A stretch of DNA of 64,000 bases from Candidatus Omnitrophota bacterium (GTDB lineage Bacteria; Omnitrophota; Gorgyraeia; Gygaellales; Profunditerraquicolaceae), in assembly GCA_026387335.1 (NCBI GenBank), contig JAPLLX010000006.1:44949-108948 (forward strand), written 5' to 3'. The translations under genes were made by a program, and so were the position numbers. Under the pieces are notes generated by a model. That model did no database searches. It had not been told where the DNA came from and worked only from the letters and a program-made list of their open reading frames with translations. Shown here one piece after another: positions 29,162-51,079 of this stretch. How positions within the stretch are numbered: the first letter of the stretch is position 1; each line of letters starts with the position of its first letter.

Positions 29162-29235
29162 TGGAGCGGGCGAAGGGAATTGAACCCTCCTATCCAGCTT
29201 GGGAAGCTGGTGTTCTACCGATGAACTACGCCCGC
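29162..29235 (-). tRNA. tRNA-Gly (anticodon CCC)
   Basis: The reverse complement reads GCGGGCGTAGTTCATCGGTAGAACACCAGCTTCCCAAGCTGGATAGGAGGGTTCAATTCCCTTCGCCCGCTCCA. It has a cloverleaf with GTTCAATTC in the T-arm, the anticodon loop TTCCCAA, and an encoded CCA. Confidence 0.88.
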
Positions 29236-41324: not shown

Positions 41325-42020
41325 TTATTCGACTTCAAAAGAGATTACTACGTTGAAGGAGAGCTGGGAATAGTCCAGTTCTTTGGGGAATTTCGGGAAG
41401 GGAGAGGCGTTTTTCACGCTGGCTAAAGCAACATCTTTAAGATAAGGCGCGCCTTGAGACTTTTCCTCCACTAACCGCACATCTTTAAGATATCCGGCGC
41501 TTGAGATTATAAAAGTAATATATACCTCTCCGGTATCGTTGCGGTTATAATTTTGATAGGCTGCCCGGCGGATTTTTTCGCGCACAATCTGATAATAGCT
41601 TATATAAGAAGGATTTCCGATTTTACCCATATCCACCGCCGGCAGGGTTATCTTCTTCTTTATCGCGATTATATCCGGCTTAATTAAGGCCGGCCGCTCA
41701 AGGATGAATTCTTTACGGGCGGCCTGCATATTGGATTTAGAGATAGCCTCCCTCTCTACAAAAGGCGGAGGATTCCTCTTCTCCATGTTAAGCTTAGAAG
41801 ACAAATCTAACAACGGTTCCCTTTTTGGTGGACTGGCCTTTTTTAGGCCCTTATTTAATTCCGGCTTTTCAGTTTTCGGCTGCTTAATATAATTGATTTC
41901 AATCTTGCGGTTCTCCTGCGCAGAAGAAAAAAACAGGTAACCCGAATTTTGGGCCACTATAACAGCGTGGACCGTAAAAGAGGCCAGAAAAGCAATTTGA
42001 AAACTGCGGTTGGATAACAT
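41325..42020 (-). CDS. tonB: TonB-like energy transducer
   Basis: It has a TM helix and a Pro/Lys-rich spacer. The C-terminus ...GEVYITFIISSAGYLKDVRLV... is a TonB_C fold. Confidence 0.7.
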   Translation of the reverse strand: MLSNRSFQIAFLASFTVHAVIVAQNSGYLFFSSAQENRKIEINYIKQPKTEKPELNKGLKKASPPKREPLLDLSSKLNMEKRNPPPFVEREAISKSNMQAARKEFILERPALIKPDIIAIKKKITLPAVDMGKIGNPSYISYYQIVREKIRRAAYQNYNRNDTGEVYITFIISSAGYLKDVRLVEEKSQGAPYLKDVALASVKNASPFPKFPKELDYSQLSFNVVISFEVE

Positions 42021-42070: not shown

Positions 42071-43897
42071 CTAGAATTCTGCTTTAAGGCCGCCAGTAAA
42101 AGAAAAACCCGGCATGGGATAACCATCCTGAATCTGATATTTACGATTTAGAAGATTATCTATATAGCCAAAACAAGTTATACCCGACTTAAATTTCTTG
42201 GATGCACTAAGCCCAAAAATATAAAAACTTTTTACCTTGATGTCATTACCAGCATCACCATATCTTATACCTGTAAATTGGCCTTTTAATTCAATAGTCA
42301 ACCCATTATGATCATTATATTTCAAACCAGCATCAATCTTATTCTCCGGTTGATAAAGAAGATATTTATGTGTTTGGGTATCCTTAGCGATTAAAAATGA
42401 ATAATCTAGCCCTAGTTCAAGGTTACCAGTAATAAATATTTTATTCTCGAATTCCAACCCTTGAATTACCGCGGATGCTACATTTGTCGGCCGCCATACA
42501 TTATTGCTATCTGGAGACCATTGGATAAGCTGTTTGTAATCACTATAAAAATAATTTAGCTTCGAAGTAAGGTACTGATTTATCTTTGCCTCAACGCCAA
42601 CTTCTTCACTTAGGCCTTTTTCTGGATTAAGGTTAGGATTCCCATCTGCCTCATAACCAGGATACGCCACATGAGGATAATACAAATCATTAAAAGTAGG
42701 CGCGCGGAATGAACGAGCAACTAAGGCATGAATCTTTACACTCTCATTAAATTTGTAAAGCATGCTTAAACTGGGATCTGTTGCTAAGCCGAAATTAGAA
42801 TAATCATCAATACGGCAGCTAAGATTGATATTCATTTTTTTATCAAATAAATCTAGGATATTCTCCAGGTATCCGGCGTTAACATTATATTTATGCTTTC
42901 CGCTAGTAGTACTATCGTTTAGGTTCCCTACATAATTAAATCCAAACACAACCTTATATATATCCCACAACTGCTCATCCAACTGTAAATTAAAACCTCT
43001 TACCGTAGTAGCCTCATTAATTTGAGTATAAGTGGTTGCCAGTCGGTCGTAATTCTGATAAGCCCTAGCAGATAACTCGGTTTTTACATCCGGTTTAAAA
43101 TTCCAGCTAAAATCAAAGAATCTTTTTAGTGTATTTTGTTTATCGCCAACATCAAGTGCGGTTATTGATCCCGGAAGACCTGATTTACTTTTATAAAAGC
43201 CGGAATTAAACTTTAAATTGTTTTCGTTATTGAGTTCATACCCTAATTTTAAATTACAATCTTCGGTATTAAGTTCGGAATTCGGGCGGAAACCTGCGGA
43301 ACTCTCATATCCTCCGCTAATCAGAAAATCAAATTTTGAAACATTTACTCCGTAAAGCATGCGCTCAATATAAGTTCGAGCAGTACCAAAACTTGAATAT
43401 AGTTCTGCCTTTTGACCTTTTTTAGGGGGATCCTTAGTAATAATATTCACCACCCCTCCCATTGCCGAGCTACCGTACAAGCTTGAACCGGGTCCATGCA
43501 TAACCTCAACCTGAGATATATTATCTAAAGGCATACTAGATAAATCCACTACGCCATCTCTTGGGTTATTGATTGGCCGGCCATCCATTAAAACTAAGAC
43601 TTGAGCGGAAGTAGAGCCGCGCATCCTGATGTTTTTATTGGTGCCCGGCCCGCCATAGTTGCTTATATCAACGGAAGTAAGCTCAGTTAAGGCATCGGCT
43701 AAATTTTGCGCTCCACCTCTTTCCATTTCTTTGGAGGTAACTACATCTACTGTGCGACCGATATCTCCAACGGATTCTTCTATTCTTGAAGGAGTGACTA
43801 CGATTTTATCTAACTCAACATCTTCTGCGCGGGCTGTGCCTGACAGGATTATTACCAATAACGCGGGGATGAACGATTTTCTACAAACATTTTTCAT
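42071..43897 (-). CDS. btuB: TonB-dependent outer-membrane receptor, BtuB-like, in cobalamin context
   Basis: Signal peptide MKNVCRKSFIPALLVIILSGTARA. TonB box/plug VVTPSRIEES...NIRMRGS. C-terminal ...GGLKAEF. The start was moved to 43897 (ATG with GAGGAAAGG Shine-Dalgarno site). Confidence 0.8.
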   Translation of the reverse strand: MKNVCRKSFIPALLVIILSGTARAEDVELDKIVVTPSRIEESVGDIGRTVDVVTSKEMERGGAQNLADALTELTSVDISNYGGPGTNKNIRMRGSTSAQVLVLMDGRPINNPRDGVVDLSSMPLDNISQVEVMHGPGSSLYGSSAMGGVVNIITKDPPKKGQKAELYSSFGTARTYIERMLYGVNVSKFDFLISGGYESSAGFRPNSELNTEDCNLKLGYELNNENNLKFNSGFYKSKSGLPGSITALDVGDKQNTLKRFFDFSWNFKPDVKTELSARAYQNYDRLATTYTQINEATTVRGFNLQLDEQLWDIYKVVFGFNYVGNLNDSTTSGKHKYNVNAGYLENILDLFDKKMNINLSCRIDDYSNFGLATDPSLSMLYKFNESVKIHALVARSFRAPTFNDLYYPHVAYPGYEADGNPNLNPEKGLSEEVGVEAKINQYLTSKLNYFYSDYKQLIQWSPDSNNVWRPTNVASAVIQGLEFENKIFITGNLELGLDYSFLIAKDTQTHKYLLYQPENKIDAGLKYNDHNGLTIELKGQFTGIRYGDAGNDIKVKSFYIFGLSASKKFKSGITCFGYIDNLLNRKYQIQDGYPMPGFSFTGGLKAEF

Positions 43898-43899
43898 TA

Positions 43900-44050
43900 T
43901 AAATTCCTTTCCTCTTCTCCGAAAGTACTTTCCCTGATAAATGATCGTCCGGGCTTTCACTATAAGAAATTTTAGTGTTTACCGTTGCGGGACAGCGCCT
44001 GGGCTCTCACCAGGACTTCCTCCATTTATCCGGTTTTGTATCCTTAAAGA
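43900..44050 (-). ncRNA. Cobalamin riboswitch, compact variant, in the btuB leader
   Basis: The minus strand reads GGAGGAAGUCCUGGUGAGAGCCCAGGCGCUGUCCCGCAACGGUAAAC. This matches the core GGGAA..GGUG..AA.CC...GC.G..CCCGC.AC.GU.A. The 3' B12-box region is divergent. Confidence 0.55.
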
Positions 44051-44054
44051 AGCT

Positions 44055-44729
44055 TTAAGAGTATTCTTGAATATCTAAGAACCAGTGTTTCCAGAAACTT
44101 TCTTTGATTATCGGTTCAGCCTTTAATATTTTAATCGGTTTTCTGAATATCGGCCCATCAACCACCAAAGTATGGAATTCTCCTTTCTCCCCACAGGGAC
44201 AAATTCCCTTTTTCTTTAACTCCTCAACTAATTCTTTATCAATATAGCGGCCAAGAAATTCTTTACCCATTATATCCGCCTTACAACTGACAATGATTGC
44301 CTTAAATCCTGCCTTTATAAACTCATCAACAATGCTCTCCGGGTCATTATTCCAAAGCGGCTCTATGGCGTTAATATTCAAATCGCCGCAGACCCGCTCG
44401 ATCCAGCTTTCATGTTCTAGAAGATAGATGTCACCAAAAACCATAGAGCCGATATCCTTACCCCTTAATTCAGTAACAGCAGCCTTAAATTCTTCTTCAT
44501 ATTTCTGCATATCCGGACTGACTTCTTTCTGCGTAAGAGGCACTCCGATTAAATCCGCCTGGAACTTTAACAATCTTCCTTCAATTCCATGAAAGCAACC
44601 CCGTTTTGACTCCCTTGAAATAAAGTTTAAAAGCAATTTTACATCAAAACCCTGCTTGATTGCCCTATAATAAGCCAAACAGCTGTCTTTGCCTCCACTC
44701 CACGATGATATTGCTTTTTGATTATCCAT
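44055..44729 (-). CDS. PP-loop ATPase of the Dph6/MJ0570 (COG2102) family, inside the cobalamin operon
   Basis: SWSGGKDSCLAYY is the PP-loop SGGxDS motif. Size is 224 aa. It overlaps the cobS stop by 8 nt. Confidence 0.7.
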   Translation of the reverse strand: MDNQKAISSWSGGKDSCLAYYRAIKQGFDVKLLLNFISRESKRGCFHGIEGRLLKFQADLIGVPLTQKEVSPDMQKYEEEFKAAVTELRGKDIGSMVFGDIYLLEHESWIERVCGDLNINAIEPLWNNDPESIVDEFIKAGFKAIIVSCKADIMGKEFLGRYIDKELVEELKKKGICPCGEKGEFHTLVVDGPIFRKPIKILKAEPIIKESFWKHWFLDIQEYS

Positions 44730-45471
44730 ATATCACCCCCCTTGTAATACAAACAATTAATAAAGTAATAACTTCGGTTAATTCGATTGTCGCTCCTAAC
44801 GTATCTCCGGTTATTCCACCGATTTTTCTACTGGCAAATCTGCCGAATAGATAAACAAAACCGGCTATAATTAATAACGCGATTAACCCTTTAATCTGCC
44901 AAATCGCAAATGAAAATACTAAAACCGATATTAATGCCAGTACAAAAATCCCCGGTGTCCTGCCTTGCATAAAAATCTTAGCCTTACCTTCCCTGCGGGC
45001 ATAAGGGAATAAAAATATAGCCGCTACCACTGACCAGCGGCTTAAAAGGCACATAAGAAGTAACGCGGTTATCTTTAATGGCGCCTGTAGCGCAGCAAGT
45101 AAACCGATTTTTAACAAGATAACGCTGATAACGCTTAAAACCCCCATTACCCCGATGTGCGGGTCGCGCATAATTGCCAGCATTTCATCTTTAGGTTTAT
45201 TGCTTAAGAAAGCATCCGCTGTATCGGAAAGCCCGTCCAGATGCATACCCCCGGTAAGAGCGATCAAGGCAACTACCAAGATTACGTTCGATGTAAAAGA
45301 AGGAAAATTCAGAATTGATATAATATAATTTATTCCCAAAAGAACCAACCCGATAAGCAACCCAACAAGCGGAAAATACGCTGCGGCTTTAGCTATCTTT
45401 TTCTCACCTGCATCTTTAATTTTAAGCGGTATAAGAGTCAGGAATTGAACTGCTAATAGGAAACTACTCAT
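44722..45471 (-). CDS. cobS: Adenosylcobinamide-GDP ribazoletransferase (cobalamin synthase)
   Basis: 249-aa polytopic membrane protein with ...LDGLSDTADAF..., the CobS signature. Confidence 0.85.
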   Translation of the reverse strand: MSSFLLAVQFLTLIPLKIKDAGEKKIAKAAAYFPLVGLLIGLVLLGINYIISILNFPSFTSNVILVVALIALTGGMHLDGLSDTADAFLSNKPKDEMLAIMRDPHIGVMGVLSVISVILLKIGLLAALQAPLKITALLLMCLLSRWSVVAAIFLFPYARREGKAKIFMQGRTPGIFVLALISVLVFSFAIWQIKGLIALLIIAGFVYLFGRFASRKIGGITGDTLGATIELTEVITLLIVCITRGVIYG

Positions 45472-46526
45472 TTATTCTTCTCCGAAACATTGGCGCTCTT
45501 AAAAGTAGCCATCTGGGTCAGGATCTTTATCGCGGCATCAGCTAATCCTATACCCAAAGCCCCGCCTGTGCCTTCGCCAAGCCTTAAATCCAGATCCAAG
45601 AGCGGTTTCAACCCTAAATAATTTAAAATTATCTTATGCCCGCTCTCTACAGAACAATGCGCCGAAATCATATAATCTTTTACCTTGGGCTCTAAGTTAT
45701 AAGCGACCAACGCCGCAGATCCCGAGATAAATCCATCAATAACCACAGGAACTTTTTTAGAAGCGGCAGCCAGGATTATCCCGGCTAATCCGCTTATCTC
45801 AAAACCGCCAACTTTAGCTAAAACATCAATAGGATCAGAAGAATCAGGCTGGTTTAAGGATAACGCTTTCTTAATAATATCTATTTTATTTTTAAGGCCC
45901 TTATCGTCAAGGCCGGCGCCCCGGCCGGTTATTTCTTCAACCGGTTTCTTAGTAAAACAGAAAGTTATAGCGCTGGCAGCGGTGGTATTACCAATGCCCA
46001 TCTCCCCTATCCCTACGATATCAATCCCTTTCCTGTATTCATTCTCAAATATTTCTATACCCGTTTCAATCGCTTTTATTGCCTCTTCTCTGGTCATTGC
46101 CGCGCCCTTAGCCATATTCTTTGTTCCATAATTAATTTTCTTAACCACCAGTCTGGGATCAGGCTCTAAATCGACACAAACACCCATATCCACAACCACT
46201 ACTCTTGCTCCAACGTGAGCGGCTAAAACATTTATTCCCGCGCCGCCCCTTAAAAAATTATAGACCATTTGAGCGGTAACTTCTTTAGGATAGGCGCTTA
46301 CCCCTTCATCAGTAACTCCGTGGTCGCTAGCTAAGGTAAAAATTACTTTATTCTTCAGTTGCGGATTTTCTTTTGCCGTTATACCGCATATTTGCTTAGC
46401 TAATTCCTCTAACCTGCCTAAACTTCCCAAAGGCTTAGTTAAATTATCCAACCTACTTTGAGCCTCCCGCATAATAACGGTATCTAGACCGGAAATATTC
46501 CTGATTACCTCATTTATCTTCTCCAC
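45468..46526 (-). CDS. cobT: Nicotinate-nucleotide--dimethylbenzimidazole phosphoribosyltransferase
   Basis: ...GIGEMGIGNTTAASA... and ...GGFEISGLAG... are CobT motifs. Confidence 0.88.
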   Translation of the reverse strand: MEKINEVIRNISGLDTVIMREAQSRLDNLTKPLGSLGRLEELAKQICGITAKENPQLKNKVIFTLASDHGVTDEGVSAYPKEVTAQMVYNFLRGGAGINVLAAHVGARVVVVDMGVCVDLEPDPRLVVKKINYGTKNMAKGAAMTREEAIKAIETGIEIFENEYRKGIDIVGIGEMGIGNTTAASAITFCFTKKPVEEITGRGAGLDDKGLKNKIDIIKKALSLNQPDSSDPIDVLAKVGGFEISGLAGIILAAASKKVPVVIDGFISGSAALVAYNLEPKVKDYMISAHCSVESGHKIILNYLGLKPLLDLDLRLGEGTGGALGIGLADAAIKILTQMATFKSANVSEKNK

Positions 46527-47051
46527 TTATTTTTCTCCTTTTATTTTCAGCGGTAGGCCCGAAATAGTAAAATAAACTTCCCCGGCTTCTTTGGCTATCG
46601 TTTGATTGACCCTTCCGGCAATATCGCGGAAGGCTCTTCCCAATTTATTATCCGGCACAATCCCTAAACCTACTTCATTAGAAACCAAAATTACCTTGGC
46701 TTTCTTTTTCTTTAAAACAACTACCAAATCTTCAATCTTTTTAAGGATTTGCTCCTGGCTCTTCCCGGACAAAATAAGATTGGAGACCAAAAGAGTCAAA
46801 CAATCAATGATTATGCAGTCGAATGAATCGCCGATTTTTGTCATTAAATCCGCTAATTCTTTCGGCTCTTCAAAAGTTTTCCAGTTCTTCGGCCGGGATG
46901 CCTGATGCTTCAAGATACGTTCTCGCATTTCTTTATCCAAACCCTGGCCAGTAGCAATAAAAGCCACTTTCTTCTTCCCTTTTGCCAAACTTAAAGCCTG
47001 CGCGCTCTTTCCGCTCCTTGCTCCCCCTAAAATTAAAATTATCTTATTCAT
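46527..47051 (-). CDS. cobU: Bifunctional adenosylcobinamide kinase / adenosylcobinamide-phosphate guanylyltransferase
   Basis: ILILGGARSGKSAQA is the P-loop. Size is 174 aa. Confidence 0.88.
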   Translation of the reverse strand: MNKIILILGGARSGKSAQALSLAKGKKKVAFIATGQGLDKEMRERILKHQASRPKNWKTFEEPKELADLMTKIGDSFDCIIIDCLTLLVSNLILSGKSQEQILKKIEDLVVVLKKKKAKVILVSNEVGLGIVPDNKLGRAFRDIAGRVNQTIAKEAGEVYFTISGLPLKIKGEK

Positions 47052-47054
47052 AAC

Positions 47055-47651
47055 TTACTCCAAGTGTTTTGTCTTGTTGAATTGTTTTATCCTGGGTTTC
47101 CCTTTTTTGTATTCAATCACGGTCAGGCTGGTCGCTTTCGGGACATAGCGCCAGAAATTATTTTTTTTCAATATACCGCATACTAATATTCCGATCACCC
47201 CTCCGTGGCAGACTATGGCCAGGTCTTTTCCGCTATTTAACCGGACAATCTTCTCTATGGCTTGATTGACTCTTTTTTTAAACACGCTCATCGGCTCAGC
47301 TTTAGGTATACAATCCTGATAAGGATCGCTCAACCATTTTTTATAAGCTAAAGGGTATTTTTTCATAATCTCTTTATGTTTTAAGCCTTCCAGGACACCG
47401 AAATTAATCTCCCTTAAAGCGCGCACCCGGATAATTTTGCATTCTTTAAAGAGGATCCGGCCAGTCTGGAGCGCACGCGACCTATCGCTAGAATAAATCT
47501 TATCGAACTTAAAGGATTTTAAACTTTTGGCTAAACTCTTAGCCTGCTCCTCTCCTTCTTTACTTAAGCCTACATCCCGAAAGCCGCAATAACGGCCTTT
47601 CTTATTCCATTCAGTCACTCCATGGCGGATCAAAGTAAGCCTGGTCACCAT
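47055..47651 (-). CDS. cobC: Alpha-ribazole phosphatase (histidine phosphatase family)
   Basis: LTLIRHGVTEWN is the RHG motif. Its position in the cob operon supports the call. Confidence 0.8.
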   Translation of the reverse strand: MVTRLTLIRHGVTEWNKKGRYCGFRDVGLSKEGEEQAKSLAKSLKSFKFDKIYSSDRSRALQTGRILFKECKIIRVRALREINFGVLEGLKHKEIMKKYPLAYKKWLSDPYQDCIPKAEPMSVFKKRVNQAIEKIVRLNSGKDLAIVCHGGVIGILVCGILKKNNFWRYVPKATSLTVIEYKKGKPRIKQFNKTKHLE

Positions 47652-48442
47652 TATTTCTCTCCCGGGACCAAAATCACGTTCGGCCTGCCTGTAACAGGAT
47701 TATTATTTACCAGGACAATAGTCTTATATACCGCCTCGATATTCTTATAGGTCAGCACATCTTCAGGGGTTCCTTCTTTGAATATGGAGCCGCTATCCAA
47801 CAAACAGATGCGGTTGCAGTAAGCGCTGGCCAGGTTTAGATCGTGTAAAACCATAACAATAGTCAGGTTACTCTGACGATTGAGTTTATTCAGCAGATCC
47901 ATAATCTGTATCTGATGTCCGATATCAAGATGCGAGGTCGGCTCATCCAGAAATAAAAGCACCGGCTCCTGAGCCAGGGAGCGCGCGATTACTACTCTCT
48001 GGCGCTCTCCCGCGCTTAGTTCATCAATCCTTTTGTCTTTTAAATCCGAAGAATCCGTTAAGGCCAAGGCCCTTTCGGAAATATCGAAATCTTTTTTAGT
48101 TTCAAACTGCAGTCTCTTTAGATGCGGGATCCTTCCCATTAAAACCAGTTCCAGCGCGCTAAAGGAAAAACTGGTAGAGATATCCTGGGCAACAAACGCT
48201 ACGCTCCGGCAGAATTCCTTTAAATCCATATTAAAAATATTTTTACCCTGAAAATAAATACCGCCTTTGCGCGGATATATTACGCGGGAACTTAAGCGTA
48301 AAAGCGTAGTCTTACCGGAGCCATTAGGACCGATAATCCCCATAAAATCACCCGGATTGATCTCCAGAGAAACATTTCTGATAATATCCAATTTAAAATA
48401 CCCGGCGCTCAAATTACTTATTTTAAAAAATGCCTTCATCAA
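47651..48442 (-). CDS. btuD: ABC transporter ATP-binding protein, BtuD/FepC type
   Basis: GPNGSGKTT, LSAGERQRV and LLFLDEPTSHLD motifs. Confidence 0.8.
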   Translation of the reverse strand: MMKAFFKISNLSAGYFKLDIIRNVSLEINPGDFMGIIGPNGSGKTTLLRLSSRVIYPRKGGIYFQGKNIFNMDLKEFCRSVAFVAQDISTSFSFSALELVLMGRIPHLKRLQFETKKDFDISERALALTDSSDLKDKRIDELSAGERQRVVIARSLAQEPVLLFLDEPTSHLDIGHQIQIMDLLNKLNRQSNLTIVMVLHDLNLASAYCNRICLLDSGSIFKEGTPEDVLTYKNIEAVYKTIVLVNNNPVTGRPNVILVPGEK

Positions 48443-49401
48443 ATCCTTTTTCCCCGTTTTAATAAAATAATAAAGGCCGGCGCTCCGATCATCGCGGTAA
48501 TCACTCCGATAGGGATCTCAACCGGAGCGAATAGGGTGCGCGCGAAAACATCACAGACTATCATAAATATGGAAGCCGCCAGGCAAGTAGTTGGGATTAA
48601 CATCCTATGATTCGGCCCTACAATCGACCGCATCATATGCGGCACAATCAAACCTACAAACCCGATTATTCCGCAAATACAAATCAGGCTGGCAGTGATT
48701 AAGGAAGTAGTAACGATTAAAATATTTTTAACCTTATGCATATCTATCCCCAGGTGCACGGCTTCCTCTTCGCCCAGCTGAATCGCATTCAGGTCCTGGG
48801 CAAAAGCATAAATCACGCCTATCCCTGATATTACCGGTATTGAAATTAAAAGGACTAACTTCCAGTCATAAACCTGCAAGGAACCCCACAACCACCAGTT
48901 CATTTCATGCATAGCCTCATCGCCGAAGAGAGAAACCAAAAAGACTATTATTGAAGAGAAAGCTACCGAGATGATTACCCCGGAAAGAATCAGGGATTTA
49001 TCCGCTATTTTTTTTCTTTCGGCAGACAAGGTATAAACTAAAACAATACTTACCAGCGCTCCCAGGAATGCTGCCAGAGGCATATAGATCCTGGAAAGGC
49101 CTAGAATCACCGCTATTACCGCTGCCAGTCCTGCGCCGCTAGAAGTTCCTAAAAGGTAGGGTTCAGCTAACGGGTTTCTTAAAATTGCCTGCAGGGCTAT
49201 ACCGGAAACCGCTAAGCCGCTTCCGACAAGAATAGCCGCCAGTATTCTAAGCAGGCGCAGATTAAGAATAACCGCGTTATCTTTAAATAAAAGATTGACT
49301 AAGGGAATATGCACCGCGCCCTTCACTAACCCCAGGATTACCGCTAGGCAAAGTAGTAAAAATAAGACCAGTAATGTTTTCTTTAAGCGTTTAATTATCA
49401 T
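48439..49401 (-). CDS. btuC: FecCD-family ABC permease (BtuC-like)
   Basis: 320-aa polytopic permease with the FecCD signature. Confidence 0.8.
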   Translation of the reverse strand: MIIKRLKKTLLVLFLLLCLAVILGLVKGAVHIPLVNLLFKDNAVILNLRLLRILAAILVGSGLAVSGIALQAILRNPLAEPYLLGTSSGAGLAAVIAVILGLSRIYMPLAAFLGALVSIVLVYTLSAERKKIADKSLILSGVIISVAFSSIIVFLVSLFGDEAMHEMNWWLWGSLQVYDWKLVLLISIPVISGIGVIYAFAQDLNAIQLGEEEAVHLGIDMHKVKNILIVTTSLITASLICICGIIGFVGLIVPHMMRSIVGPNHRMLIPTTCLAASIFMIVCDVFARTLFAPVEIPIGVITAMIGAPAFIILLKRGKRI

Positions 49402-50225
49402 TGAGAATAAAATCGTTTATAGAGCTCTCTTAATCCTTGCGTAATTCTTGGGCCTGGCCTAAGTAATGTATCCGGATCAATATCATTAAATACCCGCTTA
49501 TTCCTTACTGCTTCAATATTCTTCCAGCCAAAACGCCCCTCTACCAGCTTTAAAGGAGATTCTTTATCCATGTAAGCCATAATAATACAACCGGGATTAA
49601 GGCTGATTACCTTCTCCGCGCTAAAATAACAGTAAGGCCGCGGGACATCATGCGCGACATTGATACCTCCCGCTAAAATAATAAGTTCGTCAATAATTGA
49701 ACCGGCCCCCGCGGTCATCAGCGGCTCATGCCAAATCTCGACAAAAACCTTGACCCTCTTTTCTTGAGGTATAAGCCTCACCTTTACGCTTATCTCCTCA
49801 ATATCATCTTCCATATTCTTAATTAAGGCGAGCGCCTCTTTATCTTTATGGGTAATCGAACCTATATCCTTAATGGATTTAAGCAATTCCTCCATAGTCT
49901 TAGGATAAGCCACATAGAGATTAAATCCTAAACGCCTTAATTCCTCGACGACCGGCGCCTGCTCCAGACCAGTACAGAAAATATAATCCGGCTTCAATGA
50001 TATTATAGTCTCGATGTTGGGATGGCTAAAATCTCCGACCTTAGCCTTATTTTTAGTTAAGAGAGGATAATTACAATATGAACTCACTCCAATAATATTC
50101 TTATCCAGTCCTAAGGCAAAAAGAATCTCGGTTGTTGAAGGCGCCAGAGAAATGTATTTCGCAGCGGCTTCTGCCTTGGCCCAGATTATCGATAGGAATA
50201 TTATGCTGACTATTATTTTCTTCAT
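49398..50225 (-). CDS. btuF: Periplasmic cobalamin-binding protein (class III substrate-binding protein, BtuF-like)
   Basis: MKKIIVSIIFLSIIWAKA is a signal peptide. YISLAPSTTEILFALG... is BtuF-like. The start was moved downstream of the riboswitch terminator. Confidence 0.75.
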   Translation of the reverse strand: MKKIIVSIIFLSIIWAKAEAAAKYISLAPSTTEILFALGLDKNIIGVSSYCNYPLLTKNKAKVGDFSHPNIETIISLKPDYIFCTGLEQAPVVEELRRLGFNLYVAYPKTMEELLKSIKDIGSITHKDKEALALIKNMEDDIEEISVKVRLIPQEKRVKVFVEIWHEPLMTAGAGSIIDELIILAGGINVAHDVPRPYCYFSAEKVISLNPGCIIMAYMDKESPLKLVEGRFGWKNIEAVRNKRVFNDIDPDTLLRPGPRITQGLRELYKRFYSQ

Positions 50226-50242
50226 ACAATACACCCGGTAAC

Positions 50243-50470
50243 AAAAAACCCGATCCGGCATTTCTGCCTGAATCGGGCTGCACCCTAATAATACTATGGC
50301 CCATTCCACGAGGCGAATCTACTGATATAGGCAGGTCTTCTGGCTTGGGGTCGCTCTACTCGCTTTTTAGCCTTCCCATCCAAATCCGGACAGTGGCTTA
50401 ACTCTCTAGCTTTCGTCACCCTTACAGCGGCGGGACCGCATCAGCTTATCACTGATTTCCCTAACCTATA
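50243..50470 (-). ncRNA. Cobalamin (AdoCbl) riboswitch with an intrinsic-terminator expression platform
   Basis: The minus strand reads GGGAAAUCAGUGAUAAGCUGAUGCGGUCCCGCCGCUGUAAGG ... B12 box GCCACUG ... GGGAAGGC ... GCCAGAAGACCUGCC. It ends with the hairpin CCCGAUUCAGGCAGAAAUGCCGGAUCGGG followed by UUUUUUG. Confidence 0.85.
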
Positions 50471-50519
50471 ATTAAATGGCTTTGCCTAAATGAAGGCAAA
50501 CCATGGCCTTGCGGCCAAT

Positions 50520-50575: not shown

Positions 50576-51079
50576 TTAGAATTCAATACCCTTTCGCGCC
50601 CGGAGGCCCTTCTTGAAATAATGTTTTCTCTCTCTTATCTCGCTGACTAAATCCGCTAACTTTATAATATCCGGGTGAGCGTAGCGGCCGGTAAGGATCA
50701 ATTCTGTTTTCTTGGGTAGACTTTTTAGAAGGCTTAAAACATCTTTTAAATCGACGAGTTTAAGTTTTAAAGCAATGTTTATTTCATCAAGCACGATTAA
50801 TGAATAACTTTTGTCTCGAATTGCTTTTTTTGCCGCTACTAATCCGGCTTGCGCCAGCTTAATATCTTCTTCCCGAGGTAAATGCCGAATAAAACATTTT
50901 GACCCAAATTGTTCGACTTTTATATTCTTAAATTTCTTCAGAGAATGCAATTCACAGTAATCTTTGCCTTTTAAGAATTGACAGATATATACCTTATGGC
51001 CTGCGCCGCTTGCCCTTAAAGCCAAACCCAGCGCCGCCGTAGTCTTTCCTTTTCCATTACCGGTATAGACTTGAATCAA
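50576..51079 (-). CDS. cobO: Cob(I)yrinic acid a,c-diamide adenosyltransferase
   Basis: It starts MIQVYTGNGKGKTTAALGLALRASGAG and has the CobA/BtuR P-loop. Confidence 0.85.
   Translation of the reverse strand: MIQVYTGNGKGKTTAALGLALRASGAGHKVYICQFLKGKDYCELHSLKKFKNIKVEQFGSKCFIRHLPREEDIKLAQAGLVAAKKAIRDKSYSLIVLDEINIALKLKLVDLKDVLSLLKSLPKKTELILTGRYAHPDIIKLADLVSEIRERKHYFKKGLRARKGIEF

Follow-up and report, generated by a model that had tools for sequence, protein, structure and literature searches.

The 64-kb window analysed here (64,000 nucleotides (nt) of contig JAPLLX010000006.1, assembly GCA_026387335.1, from a Candidatus Omnitrophota bacterium) carries on its minus strand a btuFCD-cobCUTS-DUF71-btuB operon, in which btuB, the ninth cistron, is preceded by an intergenic leader. 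Very probably this leader is a functional cobalamin riboswitch of the Cbl-II type, acting as a translational OFF switch within a two-tier control of the operon. The leader, comprising an aptamer and a predicted expression platform, fills the 157-nt spacer (44054-43898) from the TAA stop codon of DUF71 (44057-44055) to the ATG of btuB (43897-43895), and on its minus strand the window reads ...ACCGGAUAAAUGGAGGAAGUCCUGGUGAGAGCCCAGGCGCUGUCCCGCAACGGUAAACACUAAAAUUUCUUAUAGUGAAAGCCCGGACGAUCAUUUAUCAGGGAAAGUACUUUCGGAGAAGAGGAAAGGAAUUUAUAAUG here. A first-pass annotation, made by a model from the letters alone, had proposed a 150-nt leader between a PP-loop gene and btuB; the location was right, whereas the measured length is 157 nt. 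The leader string which it quoted, GGAGGAAGUCCUGGUGAGAGCCCAGGCGCUGUCCCGCAACGGUAAAC, is present exactly and free of gaps within this spacer (minus strand, 44023-43977). Both of its gene identities also held: the cistron immediately ahead of the leader (44055-44729) is a DUF71/Diphthami_syn_2 PP-loop gene (PF01902, E=5.5e-59), and the predicted regulated gene (42071-43897) encodes a btuB-like TonB-dependent receptor of 608 amino acids (aa) with Plug and TonB_dep_Rec_b-barrel domains.

Pfam matches on the same strand identify the other genes as those for a btuF-like periplasmic binding protein (49398-50309), a FecCD permease (48439-49401), an ABC ATPase (47651-48442), a cobC-like His_Phos_1 protein (47055-47651), CobU (46527-47051), CobT/DBI_PRT (45468-46526), and CobS (44722-45471), and, beyond btuB, a TonB_C protein (41325-42020). 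The genes ahead of the leader are tightly packed, with overlaps or gaps of 0-3 nt. Nearly all homologues of the receptor, annotated as "outer membrane cobalamin receptor" in JGI records, come from Candidatus Omnitrophota metagenome-assembled genomes (MAGs), and one of them, an NCBI Omnitrophica MAG protein, is a 100% match. Looking up the exact DUF71 protein yielded nothing but a 1.2-kb contig, too short to inform on context. The DUF71-B12 subgroup is known to cluster with B12 salvage and transport genes (PMC3541065).

The Rfam model RF01482 (adenosylcobalamin, AdoCbl) aligns to the leader over its whole length (43902-44047, minus strand; model positions 1-149 of 149; 45.6 bits), with E=1.8e-7 in a 301-nt stretch and E=3.7e-5 when the window was compared with all 4227 Rfam families. 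This is one of just three Rfam matches with E<=0.01 in the window, and RF01482 is the best model of the cobalamin clan (CL00101) for the leader, ahead of RF00174 and the AdoCbl-variant model. A strict regular expression for the quoted motif matched only one orthologue, and the search had to be widened with a looser anchor (GCAACNGTAA...CCGGWC), followed by a covariance model. The family model R1, a covariance model from 19 compact copies of the leader, matches the window once only (43894-44043, 134.4 bits), and does not detect the RF00174 element at the 5' end of the operon (E<=1).

Loci around btuB homologues (designated by L-numbers) were fetched from species-representative genomes and metagenomes. 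The leader is conserved across Omnitrophota: it is found at the same DUF71-btuB junction in 25 other fetched loci, with BtuB identities of roughly 40-80%, and in the upstream sequences that were inspected it lies between the DUF71 stop codon, after the residues WFLDIKKY, and the btuB start. The strong members of the R1 family are 27 including the window (84.6-146 bits), 26 of which, the window counted, stand directly before a btuB orthologue. From A2, an alignment made with MAFFT only and blind to structure, RNAalifold recovers P1, the P3 pair, P4, P5, P6, the distal P6 hairpin, and the 3' hairpin. Compensatory changes occur in 24 of its 31 predicted pairs, and 95.1% of the cells pair, against 78.9% in column shuffles and 31-50% in slid registers; none of 500 shuffles matched A2 in any of five measures. 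Thirty-two core columns of A2 are invariant. A model-based alignment of the 27 sequences gave 94.5% paired (77.2% when shuffled), with compensatory changes in 26 of 34 pairs, and, holding 26 distinct rows, it is not dominated by a few near-identical sequences. Thus the match to the conserved cobalamin-riboswitch core, which the first-pass annotation had read from a single sequence, is borne out by a significant full-length RF01482 alignment together with strong covariation in 27 homologous leaders.

P1, as placed by RNAalifold and pair counts, is formed by CCGGAUAAAUGG (44022-44033) and UCAUUUAUCAGG (43933-43944), and, counted together with the invariant P3 pair, shows compensatory changes in 9 of 10 pairs with ~96% of cells paired. 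It is followed by a short segment, AGGAA (44017-44021), which spans J1/3, P3, and J3/4 and in which the single pair G44019-C43947, at the P3 position, is flanked by 2-nt mismatches on either side; this pair is invariant in all sequences, and GGAA is invariant in A2. P4 (43997-44016; G and CCUGG with CCAGGC) encloses a 7-nt L4 loop, UGAGAGC, and all its six pairs are 100% paired, five of them with compensatory changes. A GC dinucleotide separates P4/L4 from P5/L5 (UG-UCCCG-CA, 43986-43994), in which the P5 pairs are invariant and L5 occupies 43988-43992. P6 (43950-43984) consists of a nearly invariant base (CGG/CCG), a UAA bulge region, and, as the sole extension, a distal hairpin (CACUA...UAGUG), all five pairs of which covary and the length of which varies from a few to ~100 nt among the homologues. 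The J6/3 or B12-box-like segment AAAGCCCGGACGAUCAU (43941-43957) aligns to AAGUCAGGUCU of RF01482, and its AG-C-GG-C-A positions are invariant in A2. As J6/3, AAAGCCCGGACGA retains the canonical B12 box only in part: AAGCCCGGACGAUCAU has the AGCC-GG of the box, and the remainder departs from the RF00174 consensus AGCCAGGAGACCUGCC and resembles the RF01482 consensus. P1 therefore closes a four-way junction of P3-P6 with conserved core nucleotides, as in the cobalamin clan generally.

Published class descriptions assign a P2 module and a large P6 extension to Cbl-I, a bulged J1/3 with a P6 loop to Cbl-IIa, which binds hydroxocobalamin (HyCbl) and methylcobalamin (MeCbl), and a short mismatched or paired J1/3 with a short P6 hairpin to Cbl-IIb, which binds AdoCbl (PMC7367189, Fig. 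1C for Cbl-IIb); for Cbl-IIb, the same source states that there is no structural information. Some Cbl-II members, such as the Enterococcus faecalis element, have no identifiable J1/3 (PMC6158498). The leader has neither a P2 arm, only 2 nt lying between P1 and the P3 pair, nor a P7-P11 extension, and its P6 bears a single hairpin of variable length, so that Cbl-I was rejected. Cbl-IIa, represented by env8HyCbl with its 5-nt T-loop J1/3 and simple P6 loop, was also rejected, since J1/3 is a 2x2 mismatched segment here (A2 columns 23-24 versus 126-127) and P6 continues beyond its UAA bulge into a distal hairpin that covaries. The J1/3 and P6 hairpin of the leader correspond to those described for Cbl-IIb in Fig. 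1C of PMC7367189. The leader thus fits a compact Cbl-II architecture, closest by these descriptions to Cbl-IIb and RF01482, in line with the earlier suggestion of a compact, Cbl-II-like variant with a divergent B12-box region.

The peripheral helices vary in length among the homologues. In three loci the distal P6 hairpin has grown to ~100 nt with pairing retained (L010 2831-2941, L014 2848-2953, and L015 2789-2886), and these expanded hairpins hold short repeated words, e.g. TAGCG and CTATCCACT in L010 and L015, and GTAGT and CTACT in L014. Extra hairpins are inserted in P4/L4 of L008 (~2822-2915), L015 (~2684-2788; e.g. CCCCGUUAGAAGU...ACUUCUAACGGGG), and L019 (~2802-2856). As a rule L4 forms a T-loop and docks with L6, a contact which the variants with insertions in P4/L4 may lack or replace. 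Variation in length of P6 and P4 is typical of peripheral RNA helices.

Copies of the leader family or of related elements were also observed in other settings. In an Aminicenantia MAG (L060 920-1057, 107 bits) a copy is followed, after ~320 nt or more, by a longer (~700 aa) TonB-dependent receptor open reading frame (ORF), and no ORF start is found within 60 nt; the leader family is therefore not confined to Omnitrophota, and its platform spacing differs in this case. In Nitrospirota and other phyla, btuB-like genes are preceded by weak matches (23-31 bits) that span the full leader model (L021, L107, L156, and L099), and RF00174 matches are found upstream of the distant TonB-dependent receptors of L099 and L018. 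In this receptor family, cobalamin riboswitches close to the receptor gene are common and vary in class.

Downstream of P1, a J1/13 linker ending in a conserved AAGUA (43926-43932; ~10 nt by the model register) leads to P13/L13 (43907-43925), a 5-bp hairpin in which CUUUC (43921-43925) pairs with GAAAG (43907-43911) around the loop GGAGAAGAG. The Shine-Dalgarno (SD) sequence AAGGA (43905-43909), as read from the sequence, precedes the AUG by 7 nt and shares bases with the 3' arm of P13. All four model pairs of P13 covary (92-98% paired), and the arm/tract combinations across the homologues include CUUUC/GAAAG, CUCUC/GAGAG, CCUUC/GAAGG, CCUCC/GGGGG, and UUCCC/GGGAG, with a purine-rich loop. P13 alone is weak, with a minimum free energy (MFE) of -4.0 kcal/mol, no U-run follows it, and a terminator scan of 43700-44500 gave no intrinsic terminator on the minus strand. 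In 25 of 26 leaders J1/13 measures 9-15 nt; across the 26 leaders, P13 ends 2-16 nt from the AUG, and the best anti-SD match begins at -9 to +2 nt from this 3' end. An SD in or beside P13 and the absence of an intrinsic terminator in the scanned region are the marks of a platform that masks the ribosome-binding site (RBS). At one locus, L083 (~1437-1470), J1/13 is 30 nt instead of ~10, with an extra hairpin (GUCUGCC UACG GGCAGAC) between P1 and P13.

A kissing loop between L5 and L13 joins aptamer and platform in all cobalamin riboswitch classes (PMC7367189), and in env8HyCbl the cobalamin-dependent docking of L5 and L13 occludes the RBS in SL13, with linkers of 5-19 nt being functional (PMC5028336), a range that includes the J1/13 lengths of 25 of the 26 leaders. 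In the leader, L13 C43921-G43919 (CGG) is complementary to L5 C43990-G43988 (CCG), and the L5/L13 variants in the homologues include GCG/CGC, CGCG/CGCG, CCCG/CGGG, GCCG/CGGU, and CCCUG/UGGGG. In a register-free permutation test, adopted after a fixed-register count paired just 72%, the mean complementarity of L5 with its own L13 was 9.68, against 8.57+-0.41 with permuted partners, and this value was reached by 28 of 5000 permutations. Where L5 has a G at a variable position, L13 has a C in six of seven cases and a U in the other. The env8HyCbl-like layout therefore points to a corrinoid-dependent translational OFF switch for btuB. In such a switch, a corrinoid, most likely AdoCbl, would bind the aptamer, whereupon L5 (UCCCG) would dock onto the loop of P13; the kissing loop would then stabilise P13, the 3' arm of which overlaps the SD, and with the SD occluded ribosome loading would be blocked and less BtuB receptor made.

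The first-pass annotation had also stated that the operon already has a riboswitch at its 5' end, and a Cbl-I type riboswitch is indeed located there (50313-50504, minus strand; RF00174, 98.9 bits, model positions 1-189). It is followed by a terminator-like hairpin with U6 (50243-50277, minus strand), which was missed by a consensus terminator scan, with -25.4 kcal/mol, z=-4.2, and none of 200 shuffles as stable. The mechanically called btuF ORF begins at GTG 50309, 3 nt beyond the RF00174 aptamer; the true start is probably ATG 50225 (MKKIIVSIIFLS..., with a signal-peptide-like N-terminus), downstream of this hairpin. A sigma-70-like promoter match (TTGACA-16-TAAAGT, 10/12 with TG; 50557-50530, minus strand), ~25 nt upstream of the 5' riboswitch, probably marks the transcription start of the operon, and the 5' element is predicted to be a transcription-attenuation platform. 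Three relatives on long contigs, with BtuB identities of 70, 66, and 54%, carry the same operon, with RF00174 (92-101 bits) at its 5' end and an RF01482-like leader before btuB. With the leader directly upstream of btuB, the tight packing of the same-strand genes, and the recurrence of the riboswitch pair in three relatives, the proposal that the receptor has its own B12 control nested in the operon is supported. Because btuB is the ninth cistron of an operon headed by a Cbl-I riboswitch, control would be two-tiered: the 5' Cbl-I riboswitch with its terminator would set the transcription of the entire salvage/import operon, and the internal riboswitch would additionally throttle a single product, the outer-membrane receptor, at the level of translation.

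Directly upstream of the 5' riboswitch, and thus not controlled by it, lies a gene for a corrinoid adenosyltransferase (CobA/CobO/BtuR, E=1.5e-62; 50576-51079, minus strand); the same neighbour is present in L162-L164. In L162 (7673-9184) and L164 (7731-9248), a cobyric-acid-synthase-like gene of ~503 aa with CbiA/AAA_26/GATase_3 domains lies between cobS and DUF71; it is found neither in the window nor in L163. Elsewhere in the window, a tRNA gene (29165-29235, minus strand; RF00005, 66.5 bits) is unrelated to the leader.

Several points weigh against the reading of the leader as a Cbl-II translational OFF switch. The curated gathering score of RF01482 is 50 bits, so that formal Rfam membership narrowly fails, and for this reason a default gathering-score scan of the window is silent at the leader, which appears under E-value thresholds alone. 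The MFE fold of the single sequence is not unusually stable (z=-1.32); this fold mis-pairs P4/P5 with the flanks and is uninformative. In many homologues the SD lies just past, not inside, the model-register 3' arm of P13, and P13 itself has two possible registers owing to a purine-rich repeat. The L5-L13 kissing loop, counted in a fixed register with 72% of cells paired and two of four pairs invariant, has partial support, and its register shifts between sequences. The equation of RF01482 with AdoCbl-selective Cbl-IIb is our assumption. Papers citing RF01482 name it simply "adenosylcobalamin". The sequence match, the covarying structure, the position, the SD/P13 geometry, and the conserved two-riboswitch layout are shown here for an uncultured lineage, and from these we infer the identity of the ligand, the kissing loop as the switch, the OFF direction, and the co-transcription of btuB. 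As for a single P13 register that would sequester the SD in all homologues, it was rejected, as it is not definable by fixed-column counting when two registers are allowed.

With regard to the gathering score, the first-pass annotation had proposed that the absence of a covariance-model hit above threshold would speak against a riboswitch. What was found is a match that is significant across the window and falls short in score (45.6 versus 50 bits). That rule is too strict, because an orthologue reaches 50.3 bits and the comparison of homologues carries far more weight than a single-sequence score. The orthologue scores straddle the cut-off, with 50.3 bits in L003/L163, 46.5 in L164, and 42.0 in L162, and L003 alone passed a gathering-score scan of L002-L019. 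A chance resemblance or a decayed, functionless relic of a riboswitch might be suspected from the score below the cut-off, the divergent B12-box region, and four orthologous loci that have no leader. Against this stand the window-wide E-value of 3.7e-5, the 24-26 covarying pairs in 27 homologues with 0 of 500 shuffles as good, and core nucleotides that stay invariant while the stems drift. Moreover, compensatory pairing persists among lineages whose BtuB identity falls to roughly 40%, which is not expected of a decaying relic. Chance match and relic were therefore rejected on the covariation evidence, and we consider either of them extremely improbable.

The leaderless loci bear more directly on whether the leader is nested in the operon. 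In L005, L085, L086, and L087, DUF71 and btuB overlap or lie within ~30 nt of each other, and no riboswitch was detected at these four DUF71-btuB junctions. This argues for a single transcription unit of DUF71 and btuB, and so for btuB as part of the operon, with the leader as an optional intercistronic insert. The alternative is a real riboswitch that is not truly nested, with btuB-tonB transcribed from its own promoter within the 3' end of DUF71, perhaps alongside operon read-through. A promoter-like sequence, TTAAAA-16-GATAAT (9/12; 44134-44107, minus strand), does occur ~70 nt upstream of P1, and by eye the DUF71 codons of some orthologues read as better hexamers, e.g. TATAAT in L003 and TTGAAA...CATAAT in L004. 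However, promoter-like sites are at chance level at the junction (two found versus 1.5 expected), which speaks neither for nor against an internal promoter, and the consensus used may not be that of Omnitrophota. The hexamers sit in conserved DUF71 codons (PIKIL..AEPIIKE) and may therefore have been kept for the sake of the protein. In addition, P1 starts just ~20 nt past the DUF71 stop codon, there is no terminator between DUF71 and btuB, and the two genes abut or overlap in the four orthologues. A separate promoter for btuB-tonB therefore seems a possibility worth keeping in mind, though on balance an unlikely one.

The nested translational switch could also differ from our proposal in how it acts or in what it senses. 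Instead of occluding the SD directly, the riboswitch might act mainly within btuB, via Rho-dependent premature termination or decay of the mRNA. In env8HyCbl and E. coli btuB, control of mRNA abundance by Rho or decay adds to RBS occlusion in producing the full response (PMC5028336). Here, the minus strand has no intrinsic terminator in 43700-44500, the sole conserved downstream structure is the short P13 beside or over the SD, and an effect of Rho or decay is most simply secondary to a translational block; we regard Rho or decay as the main mode of action as improbable. Somewhat less improbable, albeit still unlikely, is that the internal element senses a corrinoid other than that of the 5' Cbl-I element, such as hydroxo- or methylcobalamin (as in Cbl-IIa) or cobinamide, and that the operon integrates two inputs. 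The two riboswitches are of different architectural classes, R1 is blind to the 5' element, classes differ in upper-ligand selectivity (PMC7367189), and among the products of the operon are enzymes of cobinamide salvage and of the nucleotide loop (CobU/T/S/C and DUF71). On the other hand, within the clan the leader is matched best by RF01482, the "AdoCbl" model, rather than by the AdoCbl-variant model, the 2-nt mismatched J1/3 and short P6 hairpin are features described for AdoCbl-binding Cbl-IIb and not for Cbl-IIa, a corrinoid adenosyltransferase gene (50576-51079) adjoins the operon, and corrinoid selectivity is not reliably readable from sequence. A more general form of this idea, in which the two riboswitches would differ in corrinoid selectivity or set-point and so place the operon under two-input control, is a speculation that we hold to be doubtful. 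If it were true, the finished coenzyme would shut the whole salvage/import operon transcriptionally, and the outer-membrane receptor alone would be cut back, translationally, by a second corrinoid form or at a lower concentration.

The leader, read as an AdoCbl-type Cbl-II translational switch, can be compared with several known systems. It shares with RF01482 a long P1, the core GGAAGUC-P4-GC-P5(CCC loop)-ACNGU, the short P6 hairpin, an AAG-C-GG J6/3, and, in the position of P13, a 3' hairpin, but this 3' hairpin is much shorter than in RF01482, with six model pairs flagged as non-canonical or deleted. Like Cbl-IIb (PMC7367189, PMC6158498), it has no P2 arm, a short mismatched P1-P3 segment, a small P6 hairpin, and a putative L5-L13 kissing loop; the difference lies in the predicted translational control of an outer-membrane receptor in mid-operon, and the AdoCbl selectivity of Cbl-IIb is presumptive for the leader. 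The compact aptamer, the ~10-nt single-stranded J1/13, the weak SL13 at the RBS, and the proposed L5-L13 switch are also those of env8HyCbl (Cbl-IIa, PDB 4FRN; PMC5028336). However, env8 has a bulged 5-nt T-loop J1/3, a simple P6 loop, and a preference for HyCbl/MeCbl, whereas the leader has a 2-nt mismatched J1/3 and a P6 hairpin, and the RBS is in L13 in env8 but in or just after the P13 3' arm in the leader. With the RF00174/Cbl-I element at the 5' end of its own operon, the leader shares the P3-P6 core motifs (GGAA, GGUG..CC, GYCCCGC, ACNGUAA, and AGCC-GG), but neither the P2 arm nor the large P7-P11 extension of Cbl-I.

A published precedent for the layout is btu operon 1 of Bacteroides thetaiotaomicron (PMC13616437), a cobamide-transport locus headed by one riboswitch at the 5' end, with a second just ahead of a TonB-dependent receptor gene (btuB1); there, the second riboswitch represses translation, and no terminator lies between the clusters. 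Unlike in B. thetaiotaomicron, where a promoter was mapped for each riboswitch, the internal promoter is only a candidate here, and four orthologues have abutting genes. Furthermore, the upstream genes are here btuFCD and cobCUTS salvage enzymes, and the two riboswitches differ in class and in platform (terminator versus SD hairpin). Differential saturation of the two B. thetaiotaomicron riboswitches has been stated to be unexplored (PMC13616437).

In summary, the association of DUF71 with B12 (PMC3541065) and a second B12 riboswitch before btuB in a btu operon (PMC13616437) are already known, and no new mechanism is revealed. What is new is a well-supported clade of a known riboswitch class in an uncultured phylum, which scores at or below the Rfam cut-off, and, as it appears from the two platforms, the joint presence on one operon of a Cbl-I switch acting on transcription and a Cbl-II switch acting on translation. 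Since the scores (42-50.3 bits) lie at or below the cut-off, automatic annotation misses most of this clade, and the 27 sequences assembled here could improve the RF01482 seed or threshold. A natural Cbl-I/Cbl-II pair on one transcription unit would be convenient for questions of set-point or corrinoid selectivity in vivo. Omnitrophota is a phylum of largely uncultured, often host-dependent bacteria, and in those members that carry the leader btuB would be regulated apart from the remaining corrinoid salvage/import operon.

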